Below are positions 4,952-37,031 of a stretch of 64,000 nt of DNA, in pieces. Every line of letters starts with the position of its first letter. Position 1 is the first letter of the stretch. Under the pieces are notes generated by a model. The model was not told the DNA's origin, searched no databases, and saw nothing but the letters and a program-made list of their open reading frames with translations. The stretch spans positions 762 through 64,761 of IMG/VR virus record IMGVR_UViG_2044078006_000016; one strand, written 5' to 3'. The stretch comes from a virus. The translations under genes were made by a program, and so were the position numbers.

Positions 4952-6577
4952 ATGAATCTACGTTCCATTAATATCGCTCCCAGATCCGCTCTCTGCTTCG
5001 GCCTAATCACTATGCTTGTAATTGCACTTGGAGCCTTTTCGTACGTACAGCTCGGAAAATTGAGAGGAACAGAGCAGGACATTGAAAATAATTGGCTCGC
5101 AAGTATACAGACTGCTGACGATATACAGATTGCACTTTTGAGCGCCCGTTTAGAGAGCATTCGCTTACTAGCCACTTCGAGCTTAGAAGAAAAAGCGACA
5201 GCTTCAGAGCATCTCCAGGAAGCGCAGAACATACTTAATAAGCAAACCGAATATTATCGAAACAACTTAATATCCGATGAAGACGAACGAGCGAAATTTA
5301 ATGAAGCCGCTGCGACGATGGAGAGATATATAGACGGGCTCAAAACCATACTCGAACTAGATGGCACGCAGCATGAGAAAGCCGTTCAATTTGCAAATAC
5401 TGAACAGCGTGATCGCGCCAACGACTACCAGGCTAAGCTTACAGCATTGAGAGATCACAACGTCAAAGGAGCAGCTACAGCAGGGACTACAGCGACGGCT
5501 GTATACTCAAATAGCATTACAATTGTCGACTCGGTAATTGGTGCATCATTAGTTCTTACCATATTTCTTGCAATTGCACTTACTCGAAGCATAGTTCGCC
5601 CTATGAACTCCTCTGTAAAGATGGCTGAAGAGATAGCAGCAGGCGACCTTAGGCTTGCTCTGGAGGTAAGCGGAAATGATGAGTCCGCAAGGTTAATGCG
5701 AGCGCTCAATACAATGCAAGGCAACTTGCGTGATACCATCAGCGAGATATCTGAGGCTGCCATGCAGCTTAGCACTGCCGCAGTTGAGATGAGCTCGATA
5801 ACAGAAGGCGCCAGCTTCACCCTTCAGCAGCAAAATAGTGAAATCGAACAGGCTGCAACTGCGGTGACCGAGATGAGTGCCGCGGTTGATGAGGTTGCTC
5901 GCAACGCTATTTCCACATCAGAATCAGCTCGTGAATCCAATAAAGCTGCAGCGGTAGGAAACAATAAAGTTGGTGAAACACTCAAAGCAATGCGCAGCTT
6001 AACGGACAGGATTGAGATTACGTCCGAACAAGTACAACTGCTAGCTGGACAAACGCAAGAAATAAGTACAGTTTTAAGTGTAATTCGGGCAATCGCGGAG
6101 CAAACTAATCTCCTAGCGCTAAACGCTGCTATTGAAGCGGCTAGAGCAGGTGAACAAGGAAGAGGCTTCGCAGTAGTTGCGGATGAAGTTAGAGCTCTTG
6201 CTCATCGAACCCAAACTGCAACTCAAGAAATCGAACAAATGATTTCAAGCATTCAGGCAGGTAGTGCGCAAGCTGTAGAATCGATGATTAGTAGCACCCA
6301 TGAGGCGCATAGCACTAGGCAAACGGCTGATGAGGCTGGTCAGTCGCTCAAGGCTATTACATCAGCTGTTCAGCTGATCGATGATCGGAATCAGCAGATA
6401 GCGACTGCATCAGAGGAGCAGGCTCATGTAGCAAGAGAGGTAGATAGAGCCCTCGTAAGTATTCGAGAACTCAGCGTTCAAAGTAGCGAAGGAACCCATC
6501 AGACTCTTCTAGCAAGTAACGAGCTTTCGAGACTTGCAATATCACTTAATCAGATGGTCGGTCGTTTCAGAATTTAA
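4952..6577 (+). CDS. Methyl-accepting chemotaxis protein (2 TM, four-helix-bundle sensor, HAMP, MCP signal)
   Basis: TM1 [17 protein letters not shown]2 [16 protein letters not shown], signalling motif [34 protein letters not shown]. Confidence 0.95.
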
Positions 6578-6609
6578 ATACCACACCTGCCGTCAGCCCT
6601 GCCATTTAA

Positions 6610-7125
6610 TTAATCAGCTATCGCCCTGAGATATGCCTGACACGCGCGCAGCGCTATCAATCCGTTATCTCCATCGTCGGTGATGGCGATAATTCGCTGC
6701 GCATGCGCTGGGTCAAGTTGGGCTCGACGGGCTGCATGAACCACGCTGACGGTGCCGGCGGCGGCATGCACGTTGCAGCCATTGGCGGGATCGTCGGCAA
6801 GGAGGACTGACAGCCGCACATCAGCAGTGGCAAGGCGGTCGCGCAGAAGAGCCTGGTTGCGTTGAGCATCGGATAGTTCTCGAGTGTGTAGTTGGTCCTG
6901 GGCCGCGAGCTCTTTCTCGATGGCCAAGCGTTTGTCCTGTTCGGTGCGGGCCTGGGCCGCTGCGGCATTGCTGATCGCGGCCAAATCATCCTTGTGCAGG
7001 CCGGCCTGCTCGGAGAGCTTCTCTCCCATGCGCCAGTTCTGCACCTGCCAGGTCACGCCCGCGGCGACGGCCATCAGCACCAGGATCAGCAGCACCAAAC
7101 TCGCCAGTTTCTGCACCGGCGTCAT
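6610..7125 (-). CDS. Rz: Rz-like inner-membrane spanin
   Basis: N-terminal TM, coiled coil, C-terminal ...LRACQAY; follows the endolysin and contains a nested lipoprotein gene. Confidence 0.9.
   Translation of the reverse strand: MTPVQKLASLVLLILVLMAVAAGVTWQVQNWRMGEKLSEQAGLHKDDLAAISNAAAAQARTEQDKRLAIEKELAAQDQLHTRELSDAQRNQALLRDRLATADVRLSVLLADDPANGCNVHAAAGTVSVVHAARRAQLDPAHAQRIIAITDDGDNGLIALRACQAYLRAIAD
6657..6869 (-). CDS. Rz1: Rz1-like outer-membrane spanin lipoprotein nested in Rz
   Basis: MLNATRLFCATALPLLMCG-C lipobox, Pro-rich mature part, alternative frame inside Rz. Confidence 0.8.
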   Translation of the reverse strand: MLNATRLFCATALPLLMCGCQSSLPTIPPMAATCMPPPAPSAWFMQPVEPNLTQRMRSELSPSPTMEITD

Positions 7126-7547
7126 GCCAGCACCCGCCGCACCCCTTCCGCCAACACAGCATCGGGATATGCATACCCGGCGTTTTCATGGTGGATGATC
7201 GCCTTGACGAATCCGGACATCACCGACGGCTGCGAAAGGTCCACCTCGGCGCCAGGGCGGGTGCCGGTGTTCGCCTCGACGGCACGCACGTAGGCTGCGG
7301 TGTCGTTCTCTACAGCCGGCGCCCAGCGACTGATGATCGCATTGACCGTCTTCAGTCCATGCTTTCGCTGGTAGGTGAGCAGCACCTTGCCCAAGGCTCG
7401 GATACCGTTCTCAGGCGTATCGAAGCGGGCGAACCGCTTCTCAACCGAGGGATCGGGCTTGAACTGGCCTTGCCACTGGTTGGCTGGGTTGTAGTCGATG
7501 TTGCCGGGGTTGCGGTTGCGAACGCCGCGGGTTTCAATGATCGGCAT
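7122..7547 (-). CDS. Putative endolysin (RNxNPGNI lysozyme-like family)
   Basis: RNRNPGNID...RFARFDTPENGIRAL...IISRWAP..ENDT.AY; translationally coupled to Rz. Confidence 0.75.
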   Translation of the reverse strand: MPIIETRGVRNRNPGNIDYNPANQWQGQFKPDPSVEKRFARFDTPENGIRALGKVLLTYQRKHGLKTVNAIISRWAPAVENDTAAYVRAVEANTGTRPGAEVDLSQPSVMSGFVKAIIHHENAGYAYPDAVLAEGVRRVLA

Positions 7548-8038
7548 AGCTTTTCTCCAGGCGAAAAAAAACCGCTCATGGCGGTATCGGTATGCTTGAT
7601 TGCGTCAGGTGCTCTCCGACCCTGCCGCTTTAACAGACGAACTTTGCGCCTGTATCATTGCGAGCAATGAGCGCTCAGCTACGCTCAATTTTTTCTAAGG
7701 ATTTTCAAGCCATGGGTATTACCTCGTTTTTGTATGGATTGATCCGATTCCAGTCGGTGTTTAAGGGATTAGACCTCGAGACGGAAAATTTCCATCGCGA
7801 AGAATTCGAGGCGCACATCTATAAAAATGTCAGACCCCTCCCTAGCCTGAAACGTGAACTGGACGGCAGCTACGCAGACAAATCCGTGCAAGCCTCATGG
7901 CTCAACTGGTTGGATGCTGCGAATCAGATGGACAGCATGATTTAGATCACTTGGCCGGCCCGGTCCATCGGGTCTCAGTGATGGTCATAGCTTTTCTCCA
8001 GGCGAAAAAAACCCGCTCAAGGCGGTATCGGTGTGCTT
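7545..8038 (-). repeat. 53-bp direct repeat pair (7545..7597 and 7986..8038): terminator-like hairpin + RBS + ATG
   Basis: catagcttttctccaggcgaaaaaaa(a/c)ccgctca(t/a)ggcggtatcggt(a/g)tgctt; 50 of 53 positions identical. Confidence 0.9.
7658..7945 (+). CDS. Small antisense moron, hypothetical (REEFEAH...GSYAD..VQASW..W); true start may be further downstream
   Basis: ORF on the strand opposite the late operon, between the two direct repeats. Confidence 0.5.
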   Translation: MRAMSAQLRSIFSKDFQAMGITSFLYGLIRFQSVFKGLDLETENFHREEFEAHIYKNVRPLPSLKRELDGSYADKSVQASWLNWLDAANQMDSMI

Positions 8039-8056
8039 CTTTGTGGTGACCTCTGC

Positions 8057-8983
8057 TTAAGCCTGTGCAGCCTTCAACGCGGCGAGCTCTGCGCGCAATT
8101 CTTTGACGGCTCCCATCAAGTCCGTGATCAGCGCCATCGGTTCGAGTTGCTGAACGCGGGGTTGGCCATCGTCGCCAAGCCCATCTTTTTCGCCGGTAAC
8201 GGCAAGCGGGTTGACCGCCTGTGCCTCGTGCGCGATCAGCCCTTGGTAAACGACGTCATCTCCTTTGAACACATCACCGAAATTTTTACGCTGGTAGGTG
8301 ACGATCCGGTAAGCATCTACACGGTCCAGGTAGGATGTCTTCGGCGCGTCCTTGATGTATTTCTTGAAGCGGTAGTCAGAGCCAAACAATGTCATGGTGC
8401 CCACGTACGTTGCGCCGATGTACACGTCAACGTTTGAGCCAGTCCAGTTGATGTTATAAGAGTTCGCCGTGTAAGCCCCGCTTACGCCAGTGCGGCAACG
8501 AATTCCACGAACCGGAAGCTCTACCGAGACCTCGTTCGATACAGCCAATGTACCTACTGCCACACCCGATGCGGATACGGTGGTGACTTTCAAGATCCCA
8601 TCATATGAATAGGTCATGGCTGGGCCACCGGCGGTATTGCCAGCATTTACCGAGCGCCAAGAGAAACCACCGTCACCATTACCTTTGTTTACGATGAAGT
8701 GCCCCTCCCCCAGCCCGGCAGCATTCCAGCCCATATACAAACCCTGGATGTTGTACCGGCCTGATGCCTCCCGGACGCCTACCTCAGCGAATATAGCGCG
8801 GCCATCAGTCACGCCAGTGCCACCCTTAGCAATTGGTAAGGCGGACGGGAGAGTTCCAGTCGCTCCGCCGAGGGCGGCATAGAGCTCCGTAGACATGACG
8901 TTCATTTTAGCGGCGGCGCTCCGGGTGGTATCACCACCGGCGCCTGTAGGCGCTGTACCTAAGTTGATTTCCTGTCTTGCCAT
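8057..8983 (-). CDS. Tail fibre/spike with C-terminal intramolecular chaperone (peptidase S74-like)
   Basis: MARQEINLGTAPTGAGGDT start after a GGAG SD; SDYRFKKYI...GLIAHE...AVKEL chaperone motif. Confidence 0.85.
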   Translation of the reverse strand: MARQEINLGTAPTGAGGDTTRSAAAKMNVMSTELYAALGGATGTLPSALPIAKGGTGVTDGRAIFAEVGVREASGRYNIQGLYMGWNAAGLGEGHFIVNKGNGDGGFSWRSVNAGNTAGGPAMTYSYDGILKVTTVSASGVAVGTLAVSNEVSVELPVRGIRCRTGVSGAYTANSYNINWTGSNVDVYIGATYVGTMTLFGSDYRFKKYIKDAPKTSYLDRVDAYRIVTYQRKNFGDVFKGDDVVYQGLIAHEAQAVNPLAVTGEKDGLGDDGQPRVQQLEPMALITDLMGAVKELRAELAALKAAQA

Positions 8984-9014
8984 AACAAACTCCAAGTAAC
9001 ATATTCATCGTTAA

Positions 9015-9677
9015 TCAAGAAAAGGGTTTTGCGAAAACCATCGGTAGATATTGCGCTGACGGTAAATCAACACCTACCGCTTGTAAAAGCATTCTATTGT
9101 TTGGGAAATCCCAATAAGCATACATATTACCTTGTCTAGATACCAAACCCGGCATGTCAAAGGCAATATTATTGATCAATATATAATTACCGTTGGATAA
9201 TGGAAATCCACCAGTAGGCGTCCACATTAAATTGGTTAAACCTTGTGAAGTTTTAGTTGCCCCTAGATATGTCCAGTTGTTCACGGTCCCTGTGAATTGG
9301 GCACAAGGTGTTCCATTATCAAAGATAAGGGTGTTATTAGCATCCCATAAGCGCAAACCATATGTGGCAGTTGGTGTTGACCTAAATACAGCAGAAAACC
9401 ACTTACCTGTCGCACCAACAAGCGATGTTGAAAAAGATACAGCGGTCCAATTACCCGGTGTTCCAATCACTTGACAGTAGTATAGATTGCAAGCAGTATT
9501 TGGCCTTACAAATACCAGCGGTGGCTCTATAGTTGTAACCGCTGTCTTGAAAAAGATTGGCGTATTCTGACTGCTATTTGTTGTCCATGTTCCAGACTCT
9601 ACAATTACAAGTCTGGAAAATTCAGAGTCCAGAGTCACAACATCCTTGTTGTTTACAAAAGTTAGACCGAATGACAT
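9015..9677 (-). CDS. Tail tip/fibre-associated protein
   Basis: MSFGLTFVN start, beta-rich, in the coupled run after J; visibly AT-richer than J. Confidence 0.7.
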   Translation of the reverse strand: MSFGLTFVNNKDVVTLDSEFSRLVIVESGTWTTNSSQNTPIFFKTAVTTIEPPLVFVRPNTACNLYYCQVIGTPGNWTAVSFSTSLVGATGKWFSAVFRSTPTATYGLRLWDANNTLIFDNGTPCAQFTGTVNNWTYLGATKTSQGLTNLMWTPTGGFPLSNGNYILINNIAFDMPGLVSRQGNMYAYWDFPNNRMLLQAVGVDLPSAQYLPMVFAKPFS

Positions 9678-10030
9678 TATTTATACCTCATAACTAGAAG
9701 TCTTTGAGGTATTGTTCCAATAGGTGAACCAGCAGCGCCTCCCGGCGCACCAAAGTAAACCCTTACATAACCCGGCGGACCCGGATAAATAATAGGTGTA
9801 TATGTAATAGGTGTGCGTTGACCACTAACTTCATATGGTGCTATAGGAACACAAACAGCGGAATACGTAGTAGGATTAACATCTGGATATCCGGGAACTG
9901 ACAAATCAATAAATCTACCTCCACCTGGGGAAGTCTGAACAATTTGTGAATATACAATCCTTACTGTAAATGAATTCTCATCCAGCTGCATGGCGCCATT
10001 GGCGCCCCAAATTCTCATGCCAACACTCAT
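9677..10030 (-). CDS. Tail tip-associated protein
   Basis: MSVGMRIWGANG start, overlapping the J stop and the next start. Confidence 0.7.
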   Translation of the reverse strand: MSVGMRIWGANGAMQLDENSFTVRIVYSQIVQTSPGGGRFIDLSVPGYPDVNPTTYSAVCVPIAPYEVSGQRTPITYTPIIYPGPPGYVRVYFGAPGGAAGSPIGTIPQRLLVMRYK

Positions 10031-13000
10031 TCGCTTAGATCCCCAATTTGGACCCGCTTGACGCCTTCATTGTCCCAAAACCGTAATGATCTATTTGTCA
10101 TCATTGATCTTCCCTGTCCTGGAACAACCCCATTGATTTCAAACGTGCCATCAAAGAACAGCTTCCAACCAGCCTTACCTGGGTCGTAGTTATTGGACTG
10201 GATGTAGTTGCCGATCTTGGCGTTGGTGATCGTCCCGTCCTGGATGAAAGCCGACTTAATGAACGTCTGCCCACCCTGTACCGCAAAGGGCACGATGCCG
10301 GCTTGCCCGATGGCGAACCGGTCGGCGTCGATGATGAACTGCGACTGCAGGCCGCCTGGCCCGTTCTCCAGGCCCAGCCCAATCCCGGCGTACTTGTAGA
10401 CGCCCGTGGCGGTTTCGTACTGCAGCCGCACAGTCCAGTTAAGTGTCAGCTTCTTGTTCACGTCCTGGATAGCCGTCGCGTTCGTCTGGATAGCTGCGGT
10501 GTTACCGTCGAGGGTCGTTTTCACAGTTTCGATGCTGGACGCGAGCACGCCCTCGCCGCTGATCCTTGCGGTTTGCTCGGCGGCGACTGCCGCGGCGGTC
10601 GCCGCCACCTTCACCTCGACGGCCTCGGTCTTCTGCCCCTGGACAAGATCCCCCTCGATCAATGCTGATTGAGTGGACCAGACCCCAACATAGGCTGCTT
10701 CGGAACCCATCAGCGCGCTATCGTCGCCCTGCAGCGGCGGATTGACCTGTAAATAGATGCCATCTACGCGTTCAGCGGTGGTTTTGACCTTGCCGTCGAG
10801 CGTGGTAACCGATGCCTTCAACGTGCTCAGGCCCGACGCCGTGGCAACCACGCCGGTGACTGGATCGTTGACTGTCGTCCTCACCGCATTCAACTGCGAC
10901 GCCTGGGCGCTGATGTCCTGGCCGTGCTGATTAATCGTCGCCGAGTTCTGCTGAACCTGCGTCACCAGGGCGTTTACCGTCTGCGTTACCGTGCCGATAT
11001 CGGTCCAGTAGGTTGCGTTCGGCGGCGGGTTGTTTGCCGGTACCGGGCCGTTTGCCTGATACAGGTGCTGCCCCATTCGCACAATGTCGTTCAAGGCGTA
11101 GGCCTTGCTGGGAACGTACTCAAGGGCGTCGACGATCTGGTCAATCAGGCCTTCCAGCTCCTTCTTGGCCGTGTTAATGCGGCTGTTCACCGAACCCGTG
11201 CCATTGCCGTCGACAAGGTTGATACGGTCGTTGAGCGTCTTCCCAAGCGACGTTTCGTTGATCTGGCCCTTGATCTGTTCAAGGATCGGCCCAGCGTCCG
11301 AACTGGCCTGGCCCATCACACCATTCACCACCGGGTAGAACGGACCGATATTTCCGGTGCGGTCCACCAGGCGCGCCCAGAAGAACAGCGTTGCGCCTGC
11401 CAGCAGCTGCTGCATGCGGTAGTCAGCCTGCGGATACGCCAGGTCGGCCAGCTTGGTAGCCGCCGCCAGGTTGTTCGCCGGGCCATACCACAGCTCGGTG
11501 CGCTGGGTGTCTTCTGCACCGGGTGGGAAGCCCCACTTGATGCTGATGCCAAATAGTTCGCTGGTGGTGCGCAGGAACGACACCGCCGGCGGCAGGCCGG
11601 TTTTGCCTTGCAGGTTGGTGAGGTTCGAACTCTTCCAGACTGAGGATATTTCAAAGGCGCTCACCGAGCGCACGCGGGCCAGGTAGGCGCCCGAGTAAAT
11701 GCCGGTGACGTCGACGCTAGTCGAACCAGTACGCTGCACCCTGATCCAGTTGCCGCTGTCCTTGCGCCACTCCACGTCGTACGCGACGGCGCCGGTGACG
11801 GCTGGCCACGAGATGTTCATGGTGCTGATGGCAATGCCTTGATTCACTGCGTAGCTCGACGTCAGCGAGACGCTGGCCGGTGCTGGAACCACCGTGATTG
11901 GGATAACGCTGATAGGACGCTCTTCCAGGCGCGCGCCGGTGTCGATGTGCGCAAACTTGCTCGGGTCGTACTGCACGGCCGAGATCTCGAACACGCCAGG
12001 CTCTGGCCGGGCCACGCTCACGACCCGATACAGCGGGATCGCCAAGTCATCGGCATCCAGCGCCCACACCAGTTCAGCTTCGGGCGTCACGGAATAAGCC
12101 ACAGTAACCGTGACCTGCCGGCCACTGACCAGTTGCACGGTGCGCCCCTCGCACTTGCCGTCGGGCAGGTTGAGGATAAGGCGGTCGCCGGGCTTGGCCT
12201 GGGTGTCACGGTCCAGCGTTATGGCCTTGCCGTTCACCGCCGAGATACGCCCGCCCACTGGCCGACCGGCCAGCAGTTCGTCCGCGATCGGGATCACGTA
12301 GCCAGGCAACGGAATGCGCCCGTCGAGGCCGACCTTGAAGGTAACCGCCCGATCCTTGGAGTTTGTGAGCAGCGCCCACTTGCCACGGCGCTGAGCCTCC
12401 GATTCACGGGTGCAGCCAATCGCACTGATCTCCAGCGGGTTGTCGCCGTAGCGCCGCTGCAGCTTCTGGTCGGTCACTGCAGTGACGTCTGTGTCGTAGT
12501 TGTTCAGCGGGTTGTCGTAGCTGACCAGCGCCCGGGTATAGCGGGTGCGCTCCGACGCGCTGGAGTAGGTGAACTTGCCATCGAGCACGTTTGCGCGGGT
12601 GTAAGCGAAGTCGAAGTCCGTGGCTCGCGGCATATCCGACAGGGTGAATACCTGGCCCTGAGCCCAGTAGGTCATCCCTCGGTAGATCGCCGAGATATCG
12701 CGCAGCAGAGACCAGGCATCAGCCTTGCTCTGCAGGTTCAAGTTGCAGATAAAGCGCGGCTCTTGGCCACCCTTCCCGTCCGGCACCAACTGATCGCAGT
12801 ACTGCGAGATCCGGTAAAGCTCCCACTTGTCGACCATCCAAGGCTTGATGCGGCGACCCAAGCCGAAGCGGTCGTTCGTGGTGATGCCGAATGTCGCCCA
12901 AGTCGGATTGTTGGTGTAGGCCTCCTTGAAGGTACCGTCCCACACGCCGCCGTATGTGCGCGATGCCGGGTCATAGTTGCTCGGTACTGACCATTTTCGA

Positions 13001-13752: not shown

Positions 13753-13811
13753 GCTTTTCTCCAGGCAATAAAAAACCGGCTCGCGGCCGGCTGCTGTGTT
13801 GGGGGTCGTCG

Positions 13812-14423
13812 TTACATCTGGTCTTCGGCGTAGATGGCGGCACTAATGATTGCCCCACCCCAGCGGCGCTCGCCGATGCAGAGTGGTACTGGGTTACCGG
13901 ATGCCGTGGTGTTCTTGGCGCTGCCGAAGGCGTAGCCGGGAGTGTTCTCGGGCGCGGCGCTGGTCTTGAGGCCGCCGGCCTGGGGACTGAGCATTTGGAT
14001 TACGCCGCCCAGCACCATCGAGCCGCCCATCATGATCAGCGCGGAACCGAATGGTGCCCCCGCGCCGAATGTGCCGCCGGTGATGACGAGGCCGACAACG
14101 ATCAGCACTGCCCCGACAATGGTTTGCAGTGCGCCGCCGCGCTTACTGCCGGTTATCACCGGGGCAATGCGAATATCACCCTCGCCCGAGAATTCAAGCT
14201 CCTTCTCCGCTAGGTTTGTCTTGCCGCGAAATACGGCGAACTCAACCCCATGGGACTTGGCGCTGGAAAGGAATCGCTCGAACCCTGGAATCTGCACGCA
14301 CAGAGCCTTAACTGCTTCTGCCGGCGTCCTTACGGCCATCCGAAAGGACTTACCAAATTGACGAAGCTGTCCGTAGAGCAGGATTGTGGTCATAGGCTGA
14401 TAATTCACGGAAAGTGCCGCCAT
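13812..14423 (-). CDS. I: Tail assembly protein I
   Basis: LYGQL..FG...V.TPAEAVKAL; IRIAPVITGSK; PVPLCIGE.RWGG.IIS. Confidence 0.92.
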   Translation of the reverse strand: MAALSVNYQPMTTILLYGQLRQFGKSFRMAVRTPAEAVKALCVQIPGFERFLSSAKSHGVEFAVFRGKTNLAEKELEFSGEGDIRIAPVITGSKRGGALQTIVGAVLIVVGLVITGGTFGAGAPFGSALIMMGGSMVLGGVIQMLSPQAGGLKTSAAPENTPGYAFGSAKNTTASGNPVPLCIGERRWGGAIISAAIYAEDQM

Positions 14424-14443
14424 ATGCTTTTCTCCAGGTGATG

Positions 14444-14467
14444 AAAAGGCCCGCCGAAGCGAGCCTT
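14444..14467 (-). terminator. Intrinsic terminator after the PAS-MCP moron
   Basis: AAGGCTCGC-TTCG-GCGGGCCTTTT on the minus strand. Confidence 0.7.
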
Positions 14468-14634
14468 GAATTTGATGTACTCAGTAGGTGCTAGTTTAAA
14501 TACCGTCAGTCTCATATTGGAGATCAAATCACTAACAAACAAATGTCGCTTTGTCTCAGAAGCCGCGATTTTTGGCCGTTTTAAAGCTGCTCTCCGAGAC
14601 ACCCAAATGGCAGCCTAACCGTACTGCTCGTTCG

Positions 14635-15948
14635 CTAAGCAACCTGGGTCGCAAACCTGCCCACCGCGTCGACCACTCGCTTTGCACCATCCTGAATTTC
14701 GACAATGACCTGACCCGCCTGGGTGGCGAGCTCAAGGCCCTGTTCGGCTTGTGATTTGCTATTTGCCATTTCAGTGACGGTCTCATCTACGAGCTTCTGA
14801 TTCTGTAAAACTACCGATGCGATTTCTTCTGTCGCCGTGCTGGTCCGCCCAGCCAATTGTCGAACCTCGTCAGCCACAACCGCAAAGCCTCGACCCTGCT
14901 CACCTGCACGAGCAGCTTCAATCGCAGCGTTTAAAGCCAGAAGATTGGTTTGCTGAGCGATGCTGCTAATCGTCTGAATAATCGAGCTGATTAACAATGA
15001 CTGCTTGCCCAGCGCTTCTACTCCCCCAGAGGCTGCCTGCATGTCAACGGCGATTTTACGCATTGTGTGCATAGTGTCGTTTACCACGACAGCTCCTCGC
15101 TGTGCGCTGACATCAGTTTGCTGAGATATCTCAAATGCTGTCTGGGCTGCCCCGCTGACTTCCTGCTCACGGGCCACCTGATCCGTCACCACAGTCGCAA
15201 ACTTTACCACCTTACAAAGTTTACCTTCGGTGTCGTAAACCGGGTTGTAGGTTGCTTCCAGCCACACCGTTTGGCCGCGGCTGTCTAAGCGCTCGAATCG
15301 GCCGGCTACAAACTCACCTTTATTCAACACCGCCCAGAAATCCTTGTATTCTTGGGATGAAACTTGCTCGGGTTTACAGAAAACGCGGTGATGGCTCCCT
15401 TTTGCTTGCGCTATGCTGTAACCCATAGCTTGTAAAAATTGATCATTTGCCGTCAGTACATGTCCAGAGAGATCGAACTCGATCACCGCCGTTGAGCGCA
15501 ATAAAGCCTCAATGAAGGACGCATTTTCCGAAGCTTTTTCAACTCGTTGCGTAATGTCCGTCGCATAGCAAGTGACATGACTCAAGTCTCCGCCTACATT
15601 CATGATCGGCTGCCAATGTGCATGAATCCATACCAATGAACCATCAGCGTGCAGGTACCTGTAATCGTCGGTGATAGACCTGCCAGCAGCAACTGCAGCT
15701 CTAAAGTCATGAAAACACGCCAACTTTGAGACGTACTGAGGAACAATCTCGGCCATAGCACGACCTAAAAGCCGATCGGGGGCGTATCCCAGCGCATTTC
15801 CGAAATTTTGGTTGCATGCCGTAATTTTAAACGTCGGATCGATGCTCAGCGTTAGCATTTCACGGTCCAACCCGTCGCGCAGCTGCCGCAGCTGCATCAG
15901 CTCCTCAGCCTGAGATTGAAGCTGTTTCTTAAGAGTAGTATTGAACAT
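14635..15948 (-). CDS. Soluble PAS-PAS methyl-accepting chemotaxis protein (BdlA-like), moron between tail genes K and I
   Basis: Two PAS domains (ITACNQNF...VWIHAHWQP; LTANDQFL...[10 protein letters not shown]), short MCP signal domain, no TM segment. Confidence 0.92.
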
Positions 15949-15977: not shown

Positions 15978-16004
15978 TTATCGGCATGTCAGGGCACAAG
16001 TTGA
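15978..16004 (-). promoter_or_regulatory. sigma28 (FliA) promoter TCAA-N15-GCCGATAA
   Basis: Perfect -10 GCCGATAA and canonical 15-nt spacer, about 30 nt upstream of ATG 15948. Confidence 0.8.
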
Positions 16005-16097: not shown

Positions 16098-16871
16098 CTA
16101 ATGGAGCTCTTGCTGGCCTTGAGCTAACCTGTGCCTGAGGATCAGGCGTGTTCTGTTATGCCATGGGCCACCAAAAACAATCATTTCGGACGGTCGGCCA
16201 TAAAGGTGATGCAGGAGAAAAGGCCCGGGACCATAGGTGCCTGACTCCTCACCGGGCAGCACCGGATCAGTCCCCAGGTAAATCCCGGCGTGGTTCGGGT
16301 GAAACGTCCGGCCGACATGCATGACAATCAGATCCCCGCGCTGCGGCCGGTCAACGAGAACAAAGCCGGCCGCCTCGTAATGCTGCTCGTACAGGCTGGA
16401 GTTGTTCGCACTCTCCCACCAACCATCAGTGCGCTGGAAGGCCTCGAACTCAATCCCCCATTCGCGCTTATACCAATCTGCGCAGACTTGCCAGCAGTCC
16501 CATGCACCGTGTACGAACGGGCGCTTGAGCAGTGGCGTGCTGCCCGTTGGCGTAGTCGTGCGCATGTCGCCCTCGGGCCAGGACAAAATGTGCCAGGGCA
16601 AGGCGGTGGCCTCGCACATGGCCAGATCGTGCGGTGACGGCCGGCTGGTGGCGTCCGGGTGCGAGTGGACAATGCCGATAACCTCGCCCTTGTCTTCCGC
16701 CGCGGCGTAGTCCTCGGGATCCAGCCGAAACTCTTCGTTCGGCTCCGTGGCGATGTTCCGGCACGGGAAGTACTTTTGCGCCCGGCCGACGGCCAGCAAT
16801 AGGCCGCAGCACTCTTTCGGGTATTGCGCCGCTGCGTGCGCCTGAATGGCCGCGATGATGTGCTTGCGCAT
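16098..16871 (-). CDS. K: Tail assembly protein K (JAB + NlpC/P60)
   Basis: YPKECCG, HSHPD, DCWQVCADWY, NHAGIYLG motifs. Confidence 0.93.
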   Translation of the reverse strand: MRKHIIAAIQAHAAAQYPKECCGLLLAVGRAQKYFPCRNIATEPNEEFRLDPEDYAAAEDKGEVIGIVHSHPDATSRPSPHDLAMCEATALPWHILSWPEGDMRTTTPTGSTPLLKRPFVHGAWDCWQVCADWYKREWGIEFEAFQRTDGWWESANNSSLYEQHYEAAGFVLVDRPQRGDLIVMHVGRTFHPNHAGIYLGTDPVLPGEESGTYGPGPFLLHHLYGRPSEMIVFGGPWHNRTRLILRHRLAQGQQELH

Positions 16872-26562: not shown

Positions 26563-26574
26563 GGGTCAATCCCC

Positions 26575-27303: not shown

Positions 27304-27346
27304 TTTAATGCACCCCTTGAGTATGTATTGCCCGAATTTCAGGCGT

Positions 27347-27374
27347 AAAAAAACCCAGCACTTGGCTGGGCTTT
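27347..27374 (-). terminator. Intrinsic terminator after moron 27396..27716
   Basis: CCCAGC-CAAGT-GCTGGG followed by a T run. Confidence 0.7.
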
Positions 27375-27395
27375 ATCTGTAATAAGTTTTATCGA

Positions 27396-27716
27396 TTAAA
27401 TTAAATAAATTTCTAAAACTTCGCCGCTTCCGGCCAAACGCATGCCTGTATGATCCGCTGCATTAATGACGCTACGCGCAGATTTAATTCGAGCTAATTT
27501 TTCGATTGCCTCATCAGAACCCATGTTATCGAAATGAGTGACCAAGGAGTCGTCCGGGAGAGTTCCGTCAGCCACAAGTCTCGCCGTTAGGTTTTTTATT
27601 TGAGCTTTTGCGGCTTTAACCGAAAGCACACATTTTTTGTGGTCAACACCGAGCAAAAACAATTCCTCGATCTTTCGGAGGTCGGTGTTGCGTACGTTAT
27701 TAAGCATAAGGGCCAT
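27396..27716 (-). CDS. AT-rich hypothetical moron in the head module
   Basis: 106 aa, AAGGA SD, codon usage unlike the flanking genes, own terminator. Confidence 0.65.
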   Translation of the reverse strand: MALMLNNVRNTDLRKIEELFLLGVDHKKCVLSVKAAKAQIKNLTARLVADGTLPDDSLVTHFDNMGSDEAIEKLARIKSARSVINAADHTGMRLAGSGEVLEIYLI

Positions 27717-27735
27717 CCTTGACTAGCGGTTTCAG

Positions 27736-31539: not shown

Positions 31540-31990
31540 TCTCATCAGGCTCCAAGGTGTACTCAGCAACGGCGTGCTGCTGGTCAGCGTGGGAGCCCAA
31601 AGGCTTTTCAGGTTCAAAGCGGCGGTTCACGTAGACGTCGCCCACCTCTTTGGCGGCCTGCTCGTACAACTGAGCGGTTAGCGCCAGGTTGCGCATGTTC
31701 TCGGCCTTCTCAGCCATTCGCCCCAGGCCACGAAGCCGGAACGCGCGGTTGGCAATCGGAATCTCTGCGGTCTCTTCTCGGAACCGCTTCCTGGTGTCGT
31801 GGAAAAGCGTCACCCACTTCACCGCCAGCCCCTTGCCCGCGGACTTGGTTGGGTCGTGCGTCTCCACCTGCTGGCGGCTCACCACAACTCCGTATTCGTT
31901 CTTGACGGCTTCCACCACCTGGGATGGGGTGTCAAAGCACGCCAGCGCCTGAACGATGAAGCTCTTCACCTCATTTTTCAGGGCTGCCAT
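31514..31990 (-). CDS. terS: Terminase small subunit (DUF2280 type)
   Basis: K.FIVQALACFDTPSQV..AVK.E.G...SRQQVE..DPTK; overlaps the TerL start. Confidence 0.85.
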   Translation of the reverse strand: MAALKNEVKSFIVQALACFDTPSQVVEAVKNEYGVVVSRQQVETHDPTKSAGKGLAVKWVTLFHDTRKRFREETAEIPIANRAFRLRGLGRMAEKAENMRNLALTAQLYEQAAKEVGDVYVNRRFEPEKPLGSHADQQHAVAEYTLEPDENVPATPYL

Positions 31991-32021
31991 AAATTCTCAT
32001 CCGTCTAGAGCCTGTCAAGAA

Positions 32022-32651
32022 TCAGGCCGATCTGAGCAGACAGGTTCCGCAGGCCCTCGATATGTTCAATGTCCCCACCTCAGCAGGACTGTTTGCAGCA
32101 TCCACCAACGCTTGAACGTCAGCGCTCGCACCGTAGCGGCGGACGACACCGACGAACTCTTCCACGTCGTGGCCCTGCAGCTTGATCTTCGGTGCGCCGT
32201 CTTGGGTGAATGCTGGTTGACCGTACTTATCGGTCGCATGGGCCAGGTGATATAGCTCGTGTTCGATCAGGGCGCAGAACTCAAGGTCGGTGCACTGGGC
32301 ACAGTAGTCAGCGGCCAGAGTGATGATGAAGGCCGGCACGTCGCCGAACCAGTCACGCATCTGTTGCTCCATCCGGGCTTTCTGCCAGCCACCCGCGCGG
32401 AACGCTACCTGTTCGGCCTGGCCCACCACCGTTCGGCCCTGTTTCTCACAGCTCGATGACGCCCACATGACACGAATGTCTGCATCCAGTAGATGGGCAT
32501 GGTCTTCGTTGTGAATGCTACCGGTGTCGGCAAGTATCTCGGCTTGTAGCCAGTCCCATACCTCCGGTGCTGGTGTTAGGCTAATTAGGAAGTCTGGCAG
32601 ATCGGCCAGATGAAGCGCTGAGGGAGGGGGTCTCGGCCAACTCAAAATCAC
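32022..32651 (-). CDS. Putative phage metallopeptidase
   Basis: EHELYH (HExxH) and HDVEEF motifs. Confidence 0.8.
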   Translation of the reverse strand: MILSWPRPPPSALHLADLPDFLISLTPAPEVWDWLQAEILADTGSIHNEDHAHLLDADIRVMWASSSCEKQGRTVVGQAEQVAFRAGGWQKARMEQQMRDWFGDVPAFIITLAADYCAQCTDLEFCALIEHELYHLAHATDKYGQPAFTQDGAPKIKLQGHDVEEFVGVVRRYGASADVQALVDAANSPAEVGTLNISRACGTCLLRSA

Positions 32652-32693
32652 ACCTTTCCAAGCTTGAAATAATTAGGTAATACCTGCAAATAT

Positions 32694-32945
32694 GTGACTC
32701 GCATAGCTAAGGAGCAGCAAATGGTGATGTCATGCCATGACCCCCGAAGACTCGTTAAGCATATTGAAAATGCATACCCTGATGCCAGTCAGTCTGCGGT
32801 GAATGCGGTCGGAGCCCTACAGTTTGTATTTCCTGATGGCATGGTAATCAACATCTATCCAAAGGGAACCATTCACTTCCAAGGGAAATCCAGCGCCATC
32901 CGGGCGAAAGTGGAAGCTCAAATCTCATTTATTAACAGACGATAG
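32694..32945 (+). CDS. Small antisense moron with TBP-like beta motif (VINIYPKGTIHFQG)
   Basis: 83 aa, AAGGAG SD before ATG 32721, opposite strand to the late operon. Confidence 0.6.
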   Translation: MTRIAKEQQMVMSCHDPRRLVKHIENAYPDASQSAVNAVGALQFVFPDGMVINIYPKGTIHFQGKSSAIRAKVEAQISFINRR

Positions 32946-33039
32946 CGAGCAGTATCGGTGTTGATTCACCGCTGGCTACCTCAAAGTCACAATCGATCAG
33001 GCCGTGTTAGTGGGCAATGGTATCCTTTGAGATACCATC

Positions 33040-33207
33040 TCATAGGCCTGCATGGTGACCATGGAGCAATCCAATGATCAAGCCTTTAGGAACGCTGGTA
33101 GCCAACGCTGCAGGGGCATCGGCAATAGCCTTGTCGATAGCGCTTACCGCAGTATTGATATCCGGGATCATTGGCGTACTGTGAAGCAGCCGGATGAGGT
33201 TGCTCAG
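33040..33207 (-). pseudogene. Degenerate prophage protein (IDKAIADA...GLIIGLLHGH)
   Basis: Resembles a small Pseudomonas prophage family I recall; the expected start is CTG and the C-terminus is degenerate. Confidence 0.35.
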
Positions 33208-33354
33208 TTGCAAAGCTCGCGTCACGTTTGGGCGCATTCGAAAAATGTGGCGCGTGGGGGACGGCGTACCGTTAGCCGCTCGTCACACCAACTAAACTTT
33301 CTGAGCGCCATTGCCGACCTATATTTAGGTGCAAATAAAAAATTTGGAGCGCTA

Positions 33355-33603
33355 GTGAATAAAGAAGAAATTGAACGAGAGCTTGCCCATGCCGCAAATA
33401 ATTACAGGCAGTTGGCAAGTACCCTCGCAATGATCAAAGGCACTCCACTTGCTCAAGATCCATCTTTCATAGACCAAATTGAGCACCTCAAAGGTGCAAT
33501 GATTGCTCTTCAAGCGCAAGTTCGCCGGCTGAGCGTCCTCGATGGAGCAATGCATAGTCCTGCTCGAAAAGGGAAGCACGCGCTGCACCTCGTCAAGCGA
33601 TAA
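33355..33603 (+). CDS. Small antisense hypothetical (helical)
   Basis: GGAG SD before GTG 33355; C-terminal part of track ORF 33052..33603. Confidence 0.5.
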   Translation: MNKEEIERELAHAANNYRQLASTLAMIKGTPLAQDPSFIDQIEHLKGAMIALQAQVRRLSVLDGAMHSPARKGKHALHLVKR

Positions 33604-33728
33604 ACGTATAAAGCGATGTCGCACTCACTTACTCTTGCTTATGACGATCTGAGCGTGCATCTAGCCTGCTCAGGAGTCCAGCAACCTAATCTGCTTAACT
33701 CAGTAGGCAGTGCACCCGCAGTACGCCA

Positions 33729-34046
33729 TCACTGGGGTGCTCGGTTTAGGACTTCGTCCGCTTTGTCGGCAGCTTTGGCAGCAGTCGTCGCAGCCTTCGT
33801 GGCTTGGTCGGCGGCGGTACCGGTTTGGCGGCTCAGCTCTTCTAGGCGCTTGTCGCGCTCAGTCATGGCGGTGTCGTAGGCTTTTCGCATGTCGGTCACT
33901 TGGCTGCTCTGCTTATCAGCGAGCGACCAGTATGCGGCTTGGTAACCCAGTACTGCCCCACCACCCACCAGCACTACAGCAATGCTCCAAACTTCGGCCC
34001 GGCGCCACCAGCGGCGTGCGATAAATTCCAATGCGCATCTGTCCAT
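33729..34046 (-). CDS. Single-TM protein of the holin slot
   Basis: WWRRAEVW + TM + Ala-rich coiled coil; coupled to the upstream gene. Confidence 0.7.
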   Translation of the reverse strand: MDRCALEFIARRWWRRAEVWSIAVVLVGGGAVLGYQAAYWSLADKQSSQVTDMRKAYDTAMTERDKRLEELSRQTGTAADQATKAATTAAKAADKADEVLNRAPQ

Positions 34047-34417
34047 TAGGCGATTCCTCCCAGCTTGGTGCGAAGGCGGGTGATCTCATCGCTCTGCTGC
34101 GTCACGCGGTCAGTGAGTTGAGCTACCTGGCTGGTGAGCGCCTCGATCTTACCTTCCATGCGCCCAACGGCAGCTGCCAGGTCATTCCGCTCCTTCGCGA
34201 ATTGATCGGCGCGGGCCTCGGCTTCTTTGCGAGCGGCGCGCTCCTGGTTCAGCAACTCGTTTAGTCGCTTCAGTGTGCCGATATCGGCGCTGTCCATTGC
34301 TCGGTCAGTCGCATCCTTAGAAAGGAACCGGCGCAGCCATAGCAGGCCGCCCAGTACCACGGTGGCACTACCGCCCAGCCAGGTGGCTGTGCCTGGGCCT
34401 AGGTCAGTAGGGTCCAT
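34046..34417 (-). CDS. N-terminal TM + coiled-coil protein, putative holin/antiholin-slot gene
   Basis: MDPTDLGPGTATWLGG TM; first late gene after pR' and tR'. Confidence 0.65.
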   Translation of the reverse strand: MDPTDLGPGTATWLGGSATVVLGGLLWLRRFLSKDATDRAMDSADIGTLKRLNELLNQERAARKEAEARADQFAKERNDLAAAVGRMEGKIEALTSQVAQLTDRVTQQSDEITRLRTKLGGIA

Positions 34418-34597
34418 CTTCACTCCAAACCGCATTTATTCCCATTCTGGGATTCAATAATTGCATGTTCCGCATCATTCAGAAGCGGAGACAAAAAGAT
34501 ATTTCCACACAAAAAATCAGATAATTCCTACATCAATTTTACTTCGGATAGGGAATATTGACGTCGAAATGAGTAATTGAGCAGAGAGGATCCCCTT

Positions 34598-34792
34598 TTG
34601 TTAGTCATTACTAGAACCCCCAATAAGCGCTTGCGCATAGGCGACGAAATCCAAATCAACGTGGCTAAGGTCGTTGAAGATACCGTGTATTTAGCCCTCA
34701 GCGCACCCGAACGCATATTAATCAAAGCGGTGAGTGGTATTCACGACGATGAAATACCCGAGCATCCGCACGGCGCAGGAGAACTTGTTTGA
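34598..34792 (+). CDS. Divergent CsrA/RsmA-family protein (R44A-equivalent)
   Basis: GAGGA SD + TTG 34598; MLVITRTPNKRLRIGDEIQINV...V.L..SAP aligns without gaps to CsrA ([22 protein letters not shown]...VRIGVNAP). Confidence 0.8.
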   Translation: MLVITRTPNKRLRIGDEIQINVAKVVEDTVYLALSAPERILIKAVSGIHDDEIPEHPHGAGELV

Positions 34793-34848
34793 AACGGGTT
34801 AGCAAGCTGCACTCCCTGCTCAGAGCGAGCGGTAGCAGGGCCGAAAAT

Positions 34849-34875
34849 GAAAAAGCCCAGCGCGACGGCTGGGCT
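34849..34875 (-). terminator. tR'-like terminator downstream of the late promoter
   Basis: AGCCCAG-CCGTCGCG-CTGGGCTTTTT. Confidence 0.75.
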
Positions 34876-34968
34876 CTATTACGCAGGGAGATAGAAGATC
34901 ATAGAGTACAGTATGAGCCGGGCTCTGCAGTGTAAACCCCTAATGCGCAAGATCGATAGGATGAACAA

Positions 34969-34997
34969 ATAATCTCTCATCTTCTCACTCAGTGCAA
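34969..34997 (-). promoter_or_regulatory. Late promoter pR' candidate TTGCAC-N17-GATTAT
   Basis: sigma70-like spacing, correct orientation, followed about 90 nt later by a strong terminator. Confidence 0.6.
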
Positions 34998-35222
34998 CAT
35001 TTTTCGGTTATCAGAATTTTGCGTGCAGCTCCGCCGATTAAAACCTATCCAGGGCTCTCCAAATTTCTGGCAACACCCTTTCGAACGGCAAAACAGTCGT
35101 ATCCGGGGCATGCGCCATACGTGTGATCGGGTCTAACCTATTGGCGATAGGTAAATGGAGTCGTGGGCCTGCAGGGGATCTGATACCGTTTAGCCATATG
35201 GTCGTGATACGCGAGGTTAGTC

Positions 35223-37031
35223 ATGGACGTAAATACCCACTTCCCTGAGTACGAAGCAGAACGCTTAAAACGCGTTGAGGCCCTCTGCCCGCAAAATGAA
35301 CAAGACGACGAAGTCTTCGAAAAAATGATTTCAATGACTTCAGAATACTTCAATGCACCCATCGCCTTGATTTCTATCGTCGAAAAGCACCGCCAATGGT
35401 TCAGAGCGCGGATCGGGATCGACCAGCGAACTACACCTCGGGACGTTTCGTTCTGCGCACACTCTCTACGCGACAGGAAGGCGTTAGAGGTTTTGGATGC
35501 GCAGAATGATGAGCGCTTCAAAGATAACCCCATGGTCACCGGCGCGCCCTTTATTCGCTATTACGCTAGCGCACCACTTCTCACAAGCGACGGTTTCTCT
35601 CTGGGTAGCCTATGCATAATAGATACTTCACCTCGAGAACCAATGAGCAAACAAGATGCAGCAATGCTCGTTTATTTCGCTCAACTCGTTGTCTTGCGGA
35701 TTATGGGTTTACGTTCCCGTAATTTTATTGATCAGCCTACCGGACTTTTCAACCGACTTAGACTGGAAGAAGATATTCGACTAGCAAGCTCTAGTGGCAT
35801 TCAGCACGATCTATTTGCTGTGGACGTAATATCTCCAAAATTTTTGAATGACGTAGTAAAAGCGCTCGGTTACAGCTTTTCTCAAAATTTAATGCTCAAC
35901 GTCAAGGGTAGACTTCAGTCTTTATTACCTAAGAATTCTCTCTTGTACAAAATCAGTCCAACGCGTTTTGGGTTTCTTTTAGAAGGTGGCCAGCCGGTGG
36001 AAGGTCTCTGCCATGAGATTCTTTCAAATTTTGACGAACCGGTTGATTGTCAAGGGATCCCAATACTCATGCAGACAGGTATTGGAGTATTGAAAATCAC
36101 CGATGCAAAAGAGAGGGACTGGCTACGGTTAGTGGTAGGGGCAGCTGATGACGCCAGGGTTCGAAACTTGGGCTGGGCGATGTATCAACCTGAGTTGGAC
36201 GCAGCTCAGCAGCGAGCGTTTGCCTTACTGAGCTCCCTGTCTGATGCAGTTCGATCTGAAGATCAGCTGAGCTTAGTTTTCCATCCAAAAGTCACATTAC
36301 CTACTCTAGCATGTGAAAATGTTGAGGCATTGATCAGGTGGGATCACCCTACACTCGGGCCTATCAGCCCCGCAGAGTTTATACCACTTGCAGAGAAAAC
36401 TGCGTTGATGCATTTAATTACCTTCTGGGTACTTGAGGCCGTAGTTAACCAAGCTAAGGAGTGGCTCAACAAAGGTATTGAATTACGAATCTCCATGAAT
36501 GTCACTGTCAGTGATCTTGAGAATTCTAAGTTCGTAAATAAAATTACAGAATATATAAACAACGGCGCCCTTCAGTCGAAAAATCTAGAACTTGAGTTTA
36601 CGGAAAGCATGCTCATGTCAGATCCGAAGACAGTTATTGAGCAGCTTGAGCGCGCCCGTGCGTTGGGCATTGAAGTTTCCGTGGACGACTTCGGTACTGG
36701 CTACAGCAACTGGACATATCTAAGGCAACTGCCTGTGAGTACGGTTAAATTAGACCAGTCACTAATCAGCAGCCTCAACACGAACGAAAAAGATAAACGG
36801 CTAGTTAAGACACTCATCGAGCTTGCTAGAGGATTAGGCTATAGAGTCGTAGCAGAGGGCGTCGAAACCCAAAGCATTCTGGACCTAATCACACTCTGGG
36901 GATGTTCAGAGGCTCAGGGGTACCTGATAACAAAACCCCTGAGAGCGGAACCATTAGAAACATGGCTGGCGCAAGGTGGTTTCAGCGCGGCATGTGATAG
37001 GACTAAAACGCCAGGCACCGAACCCTTGTAG
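35223..37031 (+). CDS. GAF - degenerate GGDEF - EAL c-di-GMP phosphodiesterase
   Basis: GAF (RDVSFCAH...NPMVTG.P.IRYYA.APL); GGDEF replaced by SPTRF; EAL domain with EAL, N, ELEFTE, DDFGTGYS, K.D, AEGVE, QGY all present. Confidence 0.93.
   Translation: MDVNTHFPEYEAERLKRVEALCPQNEQDDEVFEKMISMTSEYFNAPIALISIVEKHRQWFRARIGIDQRTTPRDVSFCAHSLRDRKALEVLDAQNDERFKDNPMVTGAPFIRYYASAPLLTSDGFSLGSLCIIDTSPREPMSKQDAAMLVYFAQLVVLRIMGLRSRNFIDQPTGLFNRLRLEEDIRLASSSGIQHDLFAVDVISPKFLNDVVKALGYSFSQNLMLNVKGRLQSLLPKNSLLYKISPTRFGFLLEGGQPVEGLCHEILSNFDEPVDCQGIPILMQTGIGVLKITDAKERDWLRLVVGAADDARVRNLGWAMYQPELDAAQQRAFALLSSLSDAVRSEDQLSLVFHPKVTLPTLACENVEALIRWDHPTLGPISPAEFIPLAEKTALMHLITFWVLEAVVNQAKEWLNKGIELRISMNVTVSDLENSKFVNKITEYINNGALQSKNLELEFTESMLMSDPKTVIEQLERARALGIEVSVDDFGTGYSNWTYLRQLPVSTVKLDQSLISSLNTNEKDKRLVKTLIELARGLGYRVVAEGVETQSILDLITLWGCSEAQGYLITKPLRAEPLETWLAQGGFSAACDRTKTPGTEPL

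Follow-up and report, generated by a model that had tools for sequence, protein, structure and literature searches.

The DNA analysed here, called the window throughout, is a stretch of 64,000 nucleotides (bases 762–64761 of the single 65,005-bp IMG/VR record IMGVR_UViG_2044078006_000016, which is classed as a provirus with a completeness rating of 100%). We put forward, with confidence evenly poised between acceptance and doubt, that it is a mosaic lambda-like temperate phage of the Pseudomonas fluorescens group with separate cargo genes, among which a soluble PAS-PAS chemoreceptor and an EAL-type phosphodiesterase act as a working pair. The proposed cargo slots lie after the lysis genes, between the tail genes K and I, and between the gene at the late-regulator position and the late block. 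Four genes are concerned:

4952–6577, plus strand: 4HB transmembrane chemoreceptor of 541 aa (Pfam 4HB_MCP_1, HAMP and MCPsignal)
14635–15948, minus strand: soluble PAS-PAS chemoreceptor of 437 aa, between tail genes K and I
34577–34792, plus strand: CsrA-like gene of 71 aa, read from the TTG at 34577 (Pfam CsrA, 34.4 bits against a cut-off of 27)
35223–37031, plus strand: GAF-(degenerate GGDEF)-EAL phosphodiesterase of 602 aa (Pfam), antisense to the late direction

These host-derived signalling genes were gained one at a time into hypervariable slots and are lysogenic-conversion cargo, not one system. All four reading frames are uninterrupted and lie at separate sites inside the provirus, where they show the marks of phage cargo (morons): they stand between conserved phage genes, are missing from close relatives and deviate in composition. 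The GC content at third codon positions (GC3) is 0.70–0.78 in the phage core, compared with 0.39 in the 4HB chemoreceptor, 0.53 in the PAS chemoreceptor, 0.52 in the CsrA-like gene and 0.47 in the phosphodiesterase; values so far below the core indicate that the four genes are foreign to the phage. A tblastn search with the four proteins against 50,697 isolate phage records, including Pseudomonas phage phiAH14a, returned no close homologue of any of them. The first-pass annotation, made from the letters of the window, had described four intact, separately placed morons that touch chemosensing, cyclic di-GMP (c-di-GMP) turnover and Rsm-type control. Both points stand, the former on the open frames, the Pfam domains, the low GC3 and relatives carrying each gene singly, and the latter on the domain calls.

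IMG/VR was scanned with each of the four cargo proteins and ten related proviruses were taken whole; cargo-blind samples comprised the best 80 of 411 relatives of the tail protein J and the best 80 of 348 relatives of the phrog_3412 product. The whole records scored for the four genes were G000–G010, G011 and G016–G020, leaving out an EAL prophage of P. canadensis (L320) and the P0001 prophages. Each cargo gene is tied to a slot of its own: the PAS chemoreceptor to the K–I gap, the phosphodiesterase to phrog_3412, the 4HB chemoreceptor to the Rz-like gene and the CsrA-like gene to phrog_2658. The genes occur in changing company, namely as PAS chemoreceptor, EAL and CsrA-like gene (G001), as all but the CsrA-like gene (G002), as PAS chemoreceptor and EAL gene (G003), as PAS chemoreceptor with a CsrA-like gene of 54% identity (G004), as PAS chemoreceptor alone (G005, G011), as EAL gene alone (G006, G007, G016, G017), and as 4HB chemoreceptor with or without a CsrA-like gene of 58% identity (G008–G010). 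That each gene is found in relatives without the others supports separate insertion, and the independent assortment does not support a four-gene set. Cargo of this kind is rare: 4 of the 80 J-centred loci carry the PAS chemoreceptor and 7 any chemoreceptor, and an EAL gene adjoins phrog_3412 in 8 of the best 80 loci centred on that gene. The slots differ among the 80 J-centred and the 80 phrog_3412-centred relatives alike. The K–I gap itself varies from 513 to 7665 nt (0.5–7.7 kb) across the 80 J-centred relatives (L068–L146), and two of these (L132 and L141) hold a different chemoreceptor there, 41% identical to the 4HB one.

The first-pass annotation had gone further and proposed one distributed four-part switch, selected as a set for the sessile–motile decision of the host. 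All four functions do bear on motility or biofilm control and all four genes are intact here; moreover, the phage lineage turns up in 12 or more sequencing runs, drawn from at least 9 studies, a 98% allele of the 4HB chemoreceptor stands together with the PAS chemoreceptor in three more genomes, and an Rsm protein encoded on a plasmid has been described that switches the behaviour of P. fluorescens (PMC9928087). However, among the whole related proviruses examined, only the record of the window holds all four genes. A close copy of the CsrA-like gene (89–90%) was found in one other contig (G001), the gene travels with phrog_2658, and it combines the loss of Arg44 with relaxed constraint. The 4HB chemoreceptor, in turn, is found with and without the others and belongs to a different chromosomal family. 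The co-occurrence check that accompanied the proposal thus gave the outcome named in advance as refuting it, every combination being found, and this applies to the set of four. We consider a four-part switch very improbable.

In the PAS chemoreceptor, PAS domains at residues 33–134 and 165–250 are followed by an MCPsignal domain at 274–434 (Pfam), and the sequence contains no HAMP domain and no hydrophobic stretch or membrane segment. This layout, a soluble protein with a pair of PAS domains at the N-terminus and a short MCP signalling domain at the C-terminus, is that of the BdlA (PA1423) family. The earlier term "BdlA-like" is therefore apt for the architecture only; one homologue of 85% identity bears the label "Chemotaxis regulator BdlA" from automated annotation only. 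A dense series of 437-aa homologues with 81–92% identity extends across the P. fluorescens group, and those at 84–88% stand in ordinary chromosomal contexts. Homologues of at least 83% were present in just 6 of 151 Pseudomonadaceae genomes sampled, and many genomes of the family carry a 52–54% paralogue at a different conserved location that lacks a neighbouring EAL gene. A tree of 61 sequences places the phage chemoreceptors in a single clade (support 93/90), embedded among chromosomal sequences; this indicates that a chromosomal gene of the P. fluorescens group was captured once and then diversified in phages. The gene occupies the K–I slot in 7 of 8 IMG/VR loci. In the eighth (L009, 1291–3935) it adjoins Rz instead, and the isolate phage KT1 (PQ316073.1, 17571–18113) retains a 49-aa C-terminal remnant of a chemoreceptor next to its Rz gene, so that chemoreceptor cargo shifts between slots and is sometimes lost.

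Among phage copies of the PAS chemoreceptor the ratio of nonsynonymous to synonymous substitution rates (dN/dS) is 0.05–0.11 at a synonymous divergence (dS) of 0.4–0.95, and for the phosphodiesterase it is 0.10–0.25; both genes resemble the neighbouring tail genes in this respect. Both genes are under long-term purifying selection. The selection on the cargo that had been suspected from its intactness is thus borne out for these two genes (dN/dS 0.05–0.25) and not for the CsrA-like gene (0.69). Upstream of the chemoreceptor lies a promoter candidate:

15978–16004, minus strand: sigma-28 (FliA)-like promoter, TCAA-N15-GCCGATAA, ending 29 nt before the ATG of the PAS chemoreceptor

The exact motif GCCGATAA occurs only 3 times in the window. 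The nucleotide similarity to chromosomal copies of the chemoreceptor gene extends to position 15988 and hence includes the -10 element. On this pattern, the lysogen probably expresses the chemoreceptor together with its flagellar regulon, from a FliA-type promoter.

The phosphodiesterase shows a GAF domain (50.4 bits), a weak GGDEF domain (33.8 bits) and a strong EAL domain (214.7 bits). The active-site position of the GGDEF domain reads SPTRF and departs from the GG(D/E)EF motif of diguanylate cyclases. Aligned with the DosP chain, the EAL domain retains the full catalytic and metal-binding set (EAL...R, N, ExxE, the DDFGTGYS loop 6, K, EGVE and QG). With an intact EAL set and SPTRF in place of the cyclase motif, the enzyme should only degrade c-di-GMP. 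None of the named phosphodiesterase equivalogs in NCBIfam (DibA, DosP, GepA, PvrR and others) was reached, the best being DibA with 254.9 bits against 980. The gene always adjoins the phrog_3412 gene, and its family shows an identity gap between 72% and 65%, above which the members make up a clade of 72–98%. Copies of 75–98% identity for which the context was checked lie in or at the edge of prophages, and the checked copies at 72% (P0140) and at 55–65% are chromosomal; the 72% homologue follows a different chemoreceptor.

The case for a working pair begins with the phages. An EAL gene is present in 4 of the 7 complete phages that carry the PAS chemoreceptor in the K–I slot, and the PAS chemoreceptor in 4 of the 8 complete phages with an EAL gene, compared with background frequencies of 5–10% (4/80 for the chemoreceptor, 8/80 for the EAL gene). 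When the index case is left out, 3 of 6 against a background of about 10% corresponds to a binomial probability of about 0.02, a figure that ignores relatedness. The four EAL-positive phages sit in three subclades of the chemoreceptor tree, each of which also has EAL-negative members. Their EAL alleles (G000–G003) are young, with a dS of 0.13–0.24, far below that of their chemoreceptor alleles. The enzyme module was therefore recombined into phages that already bore diverged chemoreceptors. The four genes are not co-inherited as a set; for the PAS chemoreceptor and the EAL gene the same comparison was positive, but is confounded by ascertainment and relatedness.

The second line of evidence comes from bacterial chromosomes. 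In P. orientalis, a 4HB chemoreceptor, a PAS-PAS chemoreceptor and a GAF-GGDEF-EAL gene follow one another on one strand, and clusters of this type were found at L150 (4212–9181), L162, L163, G115 (C1:3847643–3850796) and G133. The chromosomal PAS chemoreceptor is 84–85% identical to that of the phage and the enzyme 50% over 576 residues; across the whole genomes of G115 and G133, no gene matches the phage enzyme better than the one adjoining the chemoreceptor. The cluster thus encodes the same three protein architectures as three of the four phage cargo genes. It differs in that its genes are adjacent on one strand whereas those of the phage are scattered, and the ligand-binding domain of the phage 4HB chemoreceptor is unrelated (39% identity, confined to the signalling half). 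We collected 52 chromosomal loci of the PAS chemoreceptor from species-representative genomes, about 1 Mb in total. Of the 14 EAL-domain genes in them, 13 are no more than 3.3 kb away from the chemoreceptor gene; at least five arrangements occur, the EAL proteins differ between them, and the chemoreceptors involved have 63–88% identity. Besides the P. orientalis type there are, among others, a convergent EAL gene at L167 and L201 with a product of 63–68% identity to the phage enzyme, an EAL-only gene in P. mandelii, P. laurentiana and P. defluvii, and a 36%-type EAL gene in the P. entomophila group.

Several observations weigh against a pair. It is not obligate: 3 complete phages have the chemoreceptor only and 4 the enzyme only, an EAL gene is missing from the vicinity of the chemoreceptor in 38 of the 52 chromosomal loci, and three chromosomal homologues of the enzyme (55–64%) lack a nearby chemoreceptor. 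The samples were ascertained through the genes themselves, and the co-occurrence may reflect phages recombining within one host clade. The alternative is that of four independent cargo genes without any coupling, in which co-occurrence results from shared ancestry and recombination in one host population and chromosomal adjacency from a general clustering of signalling genes. Consistent with it, all combinations occur, tight linkage exists only to the slot neighbour, and the same phage lineage recurs in many isolates. The young EAL alleles of G000–G003 share a phrog_3412 allele of 96–97% identity, which fits one module spreading locally, and none of the three chromosomal enzyme homologues checked adjoins a chemoreceptor. 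On the other hand, local spread and general clustering do not sit easily with 13 of 14 EAL genes so close to the chemoreceptor, with at least five EAL proteins in that position, with the distribution of the EAL-positive phages over three chemoreceptor subclades, or with the experimental precedent for a sensor–enzyme pair (PMC13584717). Independent cargo is a real contender, to which we assign a substantial though minority share of our confidence. If the genes are unconnected, the locus represents the ordinary, well-documented modular cargo of lambdoid phages. The earlier suggestion that the phage carries both the sensor and its phosphodiesterase partner is therefore kept in part: phage co-occurrence and chromosomal adjacency speak for it, and the pair is not obligate. 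A sensor–phosphodiesterase pair on the phage is moderately supported.

Lower c-di-GMP levels favour motility and dispersal in pseudomonads. In the lysogen, the GAF-GGDEF*-EAL enzyme would hydrolyse c-di-GMP, and the cell would shift to a motile, dispersed state. The PAS-PAS chemoreceptor, probably transcribed with the flagellar regulon from its FliA-type promoter, would sense an internal cue and act together with the phosphodiesterase, as BdlA stimulates DipA. The 4HB chemoreceptor may add one ligand specificity to the chemotaxis array of the host. BdlA of P. aeruginosa relocates to the flagellated pole; it binds DipA, a phosphodiesterase, and stimulates it (PMC13584717). The likeness lies in the combination of a soluble PAS-PAS chemoreceptor-like protein with an EAL phosphodiesterase that has a degenerate GGDEF domain, a system in which the sensor-stimulated enzyme lowers c-di-GMP and flagellar motility is restored (PMC13584717, PMC4047105). 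Unlike the P. aeruginosa genes, those described here are located on a temperate phage and 19 kb apart, and most large Pseudomonadaceae genomes have only the 52–54% homologue of the phage sensor, in a different context. DipA exceeds the 602-aa GAF-GGDEF*-EAL enzyme of the phage in length and has a PAS domain.

It is known that prophages can change how their hosts behave, for the most part through single genes. A sensor–phosphodiesterase pair on a phage, as lysogenic-conversion cargo with a logic like that of BdlA and DipA, is a testable hypothesis with moderate support. A full-text literature search of incomplete coverage found no report of a temperate phage with a BdlA-type receptor and a phosphodiesterase; the literature also contains a Shewanella prophage that affects motility. 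If the pair is real, it would show that phages can carry a functional part of the c-di-GMP and chemosensory network from strain to strain, and it would make the effect of lysogeny on the change between biofilm and swimming in soil and plant pseudomonads readily accessible to experiment. The chromosomal neighbourhoods also argue, independently and from genomic data, that BdlA-type receptors beyond P. aeruginosa generally function together with EAL enzymes. A more far-reaching version, which we find rather doubtful, is a portable dispersal module on phages of the P. fluorescens group. Here, a captured BdlA-type sensor and a GAF-EAL phosphodiesterase, neighbours on some host chromosomes, would have been reunited at two distant slots of the phage. 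The module would lower c-di-GMP, so that the lysogen leaves the biofilm and the prophage spreads. The same decision would be tuned by the 4HB chemoreceptor and by the Arg44-less CsrA-like protein, which might enter the Rsm dimers of the host as a poison subunit.

The genes could also serve the cycle of the phage itself, either by coupling the host state (redox, c-di-GMP) to the lysis–lysogeny decision or through a drop in c-di-GMP at induction that loosens the matrix and frees virions. The phosphodiesterase and the CsrA-like gene do lie at the junction between the gene at the late-regulator position and the late block, beside a terminator-like hairpin, and links between c-di-GMP and phage decisions are reported for a vibriophage (PMC11315295). 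However, both genes are antisense to the late operon, and the FliA-like promoter of the PAS chemoreceptor is of host type and also belongs to the chromosomal relatives of that gene. Transcript data point in the same direction. In one metatranscriptome (run X18, window 33000–38600), contigs cover the CsrA-like gene (34458–34913) and parts of the phosphodiesterase (35539–35996 and 36341–37038), and no contigs were found on the phage genes to either side of the two. The pattern fits, if weakly, cargo transcription in lysogens. Three of the four candidate RNA runs are probably DNA and the remaining metatranscriptome is weakly informative; its evidence consists of assembled contigs and may contain DNA. 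We regard a role in the phage cycle as improbable. The X18 contig over the CsrA-like gene runs into unlike sequence past 34913, which indicates a different neighbour in that organism. The stretch with the CsrA-like and phosphodiesterase genes is nearly whole in 14 sequencing runs from at least 9 studies, and 12 of the 14 also carry the chemoreceptor allele of the window. The phage lineage thus circulates widely; since it is one lineage, this provides no independent support.

The CsrA-like gene is the weakest of the four on account of its missing Arg44, its sub-equivalog score and its dN/dS. PHROG assigns it as "CsrA-like regulator". The protein stays below the NCBIfam equivalog cut-off (TIGR00202, 32 bits against 70.1). 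The Pfam match spans profile positions 2–42, and alignment with CsrA is possible over positions 1–42 only; an alternative TTG start at 34598 would give the canonical MLxxTR N-terminus. At His43-Arg44 of CsrA the protein reads Lys-Ala, a change otherwise found only in the G001 copy (89–90% identical), and Arg44 is described as essential for RNA binding (PMC7366521). Besides G001, variants with 54–69% identity occur in three more contigs; among the distant phage variants, the Arg is kept in L081 and G004 and replaced by Lys in G008. The single usable comparison gave a dN/dS of 0.69 at a dS of 0.065. The copy may be decaying, or may act in a way other than canonical GGA-RNA binding. The gene is always divergent from phrog_2658, with or without the phosphodiesterase. 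CsrA/Rsm-family genes on mobile elements are not new: RsmQ of plasmid pQBR103, likewise from fluorescent pseudomonads, causes a motile-to-sessile switch (PMC9928087), and csrA alleles of Pseudomonas phages and plasmids have already been catalogued (PMC7366521). The copy described here differs from these by the Ala at Arg44, by a CsrA match over positions 1–42 and by the absence of clear purifying selection.

The 4HB chemoreceptor belongs to the transmembrane 4HB class by its Pfam domains, including HAMP, by two hydrophobic segments near residues 13–34 and 190–212 that flank the ligand-binding domain, and by a signalling domain of about 280 residues with the conserved hairpin-tip motif. In the family of its ligand-binding domain, the members with 52–56% identity represent a widespread 541-aa chemoreceptor of the P. 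syringae group. The gene is part of the lysis-distal prophage end; it is convergent with the Rz-like gene, which flanks it on one side, and has PHROG-family genes at 712–4207 on the other. We considered that it might be host flank and rejected this, given the PHROG-family genes beyond it and the block at 712–2230, which more than 40 related proviruses share at their ends. In five genomes, whose host flanks are of at least two kinds, the 98% allele likewise has the arrangement DUF7673...MCP|Rz, and alleles of 64–69% adjoin Rz in six IMG/VR contigs. The gene arrived with a 4.4-kb segment, which is present in L326–L330 at 93% nucleotide identity; at about 4.9–6.6 kb these loci, which bear the 98% chemoreceptor allele, have umuD/umuC-like genes (S24 peptidase and IMS polymerase) at the end of the prophage, where the window has other small genes. 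Relatives with the 64%-type chemoreceptor after Rz also carry a 165-aa GAF-only gene (L323, 20154–21314; L324, 20563–21314; G002, about 43.7–45.9 kb), which the window allele lacks; such a gene is also found near the chromosomal phosphodiesterase homologue in L229.

The backbone is that of a lambda-like siphophage of the phiAH14a type. Phage phiAH14a is the closest isolate, with 86% nucleotide identity across half of the late region; it shares the backbone and has extra genes of its own at L–K, K–I and I–J, but no close homologue of any of the four cargo genes. Read on the minus strand, the late genes extend from about 34.4 kb to 6.6 kb in the order terminase, portal, capsid and tape measure, followed by homologues of the tail genes L, K, I and J, a fibre gene, the endolysin gene (7122–7547) and, downstream of the latter, the Rz-like gene. 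The replication/NinG block lies at 37.7–42 kb and a cI-like S24 repressor gene at 42300–43034, from which a long early-left arm extends to the tyrosine integrase (from 63051 onward). The elements that border the cargo slots are:

2232–4951: rest of the 4.4-kb cargo segment, with phrog_36962, a 94-aa open reading frame and a DUF7673 gene
6610–7125, minus strand: Rz-like spanin (weak Pfam Phage_lysis match, 21.1 bits against a cut-off of 25.4), bordering the terminal cargo slot
13812–14423, minus strand: homologue of tail assembly protein I (Pfam Lambda_tail_I), downstream border of the K–I slot
16098–16871, minus strand: homologue of tail assembly protein K, 88% identical to phiAH14a p81 (annotated as "tail assembly protein K"), upstream border of the K–I slot
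34046–34435, minus strand: phrog_2658 small membrane/coiled-coil gene (PHROG), which opens the late block and is the constant neighbour of the CsrA-like gene
34852–34877, minus (late) strand: terminator-like hairpin between phosphodiesterase and CsrA-like gene, a consensus match only
37130–37678, minus strand: phrog_3412 gene (PHROG), 182 aa, where a Q-like late regulator would sit, constant neighbour of the phosphodiesterase gene

Apart from this hairpin, scans for sigma-70 promoters and terminators near the cargo genes gave counts not above those in shuffled sequence. The record boundaries are gene boundaries, the right end being the stop codon of the integrase, and a scan of the record found no tRNA and no terminal repeat, which makes the att sites unreadable.

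The claim that many early genes decay was overstated, although three lesions are present. The insertion of the 4.4-kb segment with the 4HB chemoreceptor cut the SRAP-like gene (1873–2232) at 2232 and left about 40% of its length, compared with 226–234 aa in five relatives. An 87-aa remnant (57915–58178, plus strand) is all that is left of an open reading frame of about 700 aa, which is intact in six relatives; it adjoins an SRA/HNH-domain gene (56681–57850, plus strand) and marks a replacement junction. An IS3-family transposase (43770–44869, plus strand; HTH and rve, two overlapping reading frames) is inserted directly downstream of the cI-like repressor gene and of a DUF4236/FtsK-gamma gene. 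Otherwise the phage genes are open, among them those for replication, NinG, cI, terminase, head and tail. An automated screen for broken genes against the reading frames of relatives was very noisy in this GC-rich DNA, with the SRAP-like gene and the remnant of the 700-aa frame as its only convincing cases, and many apparent partial matches were ordinary mosaic junctions. IS3 copies with 90–96% identity adjoin the chromosomal PAS chemoreceptor in P. lundensis (L155) and in L172.

At the left end of the window, a phrog_12397 gene of 69 aa (712–921, plus strand) was noted together with a gene at 1059–1382 (plus strand), and many related IMG/VR provirus records end exactly at the start of phrog_12397. 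In P. mandelii, a 68% nucleotide match to this gene lies ahead of a HicB-like gene, and the phrog_12397 gene may encode a HicA-type toxin.

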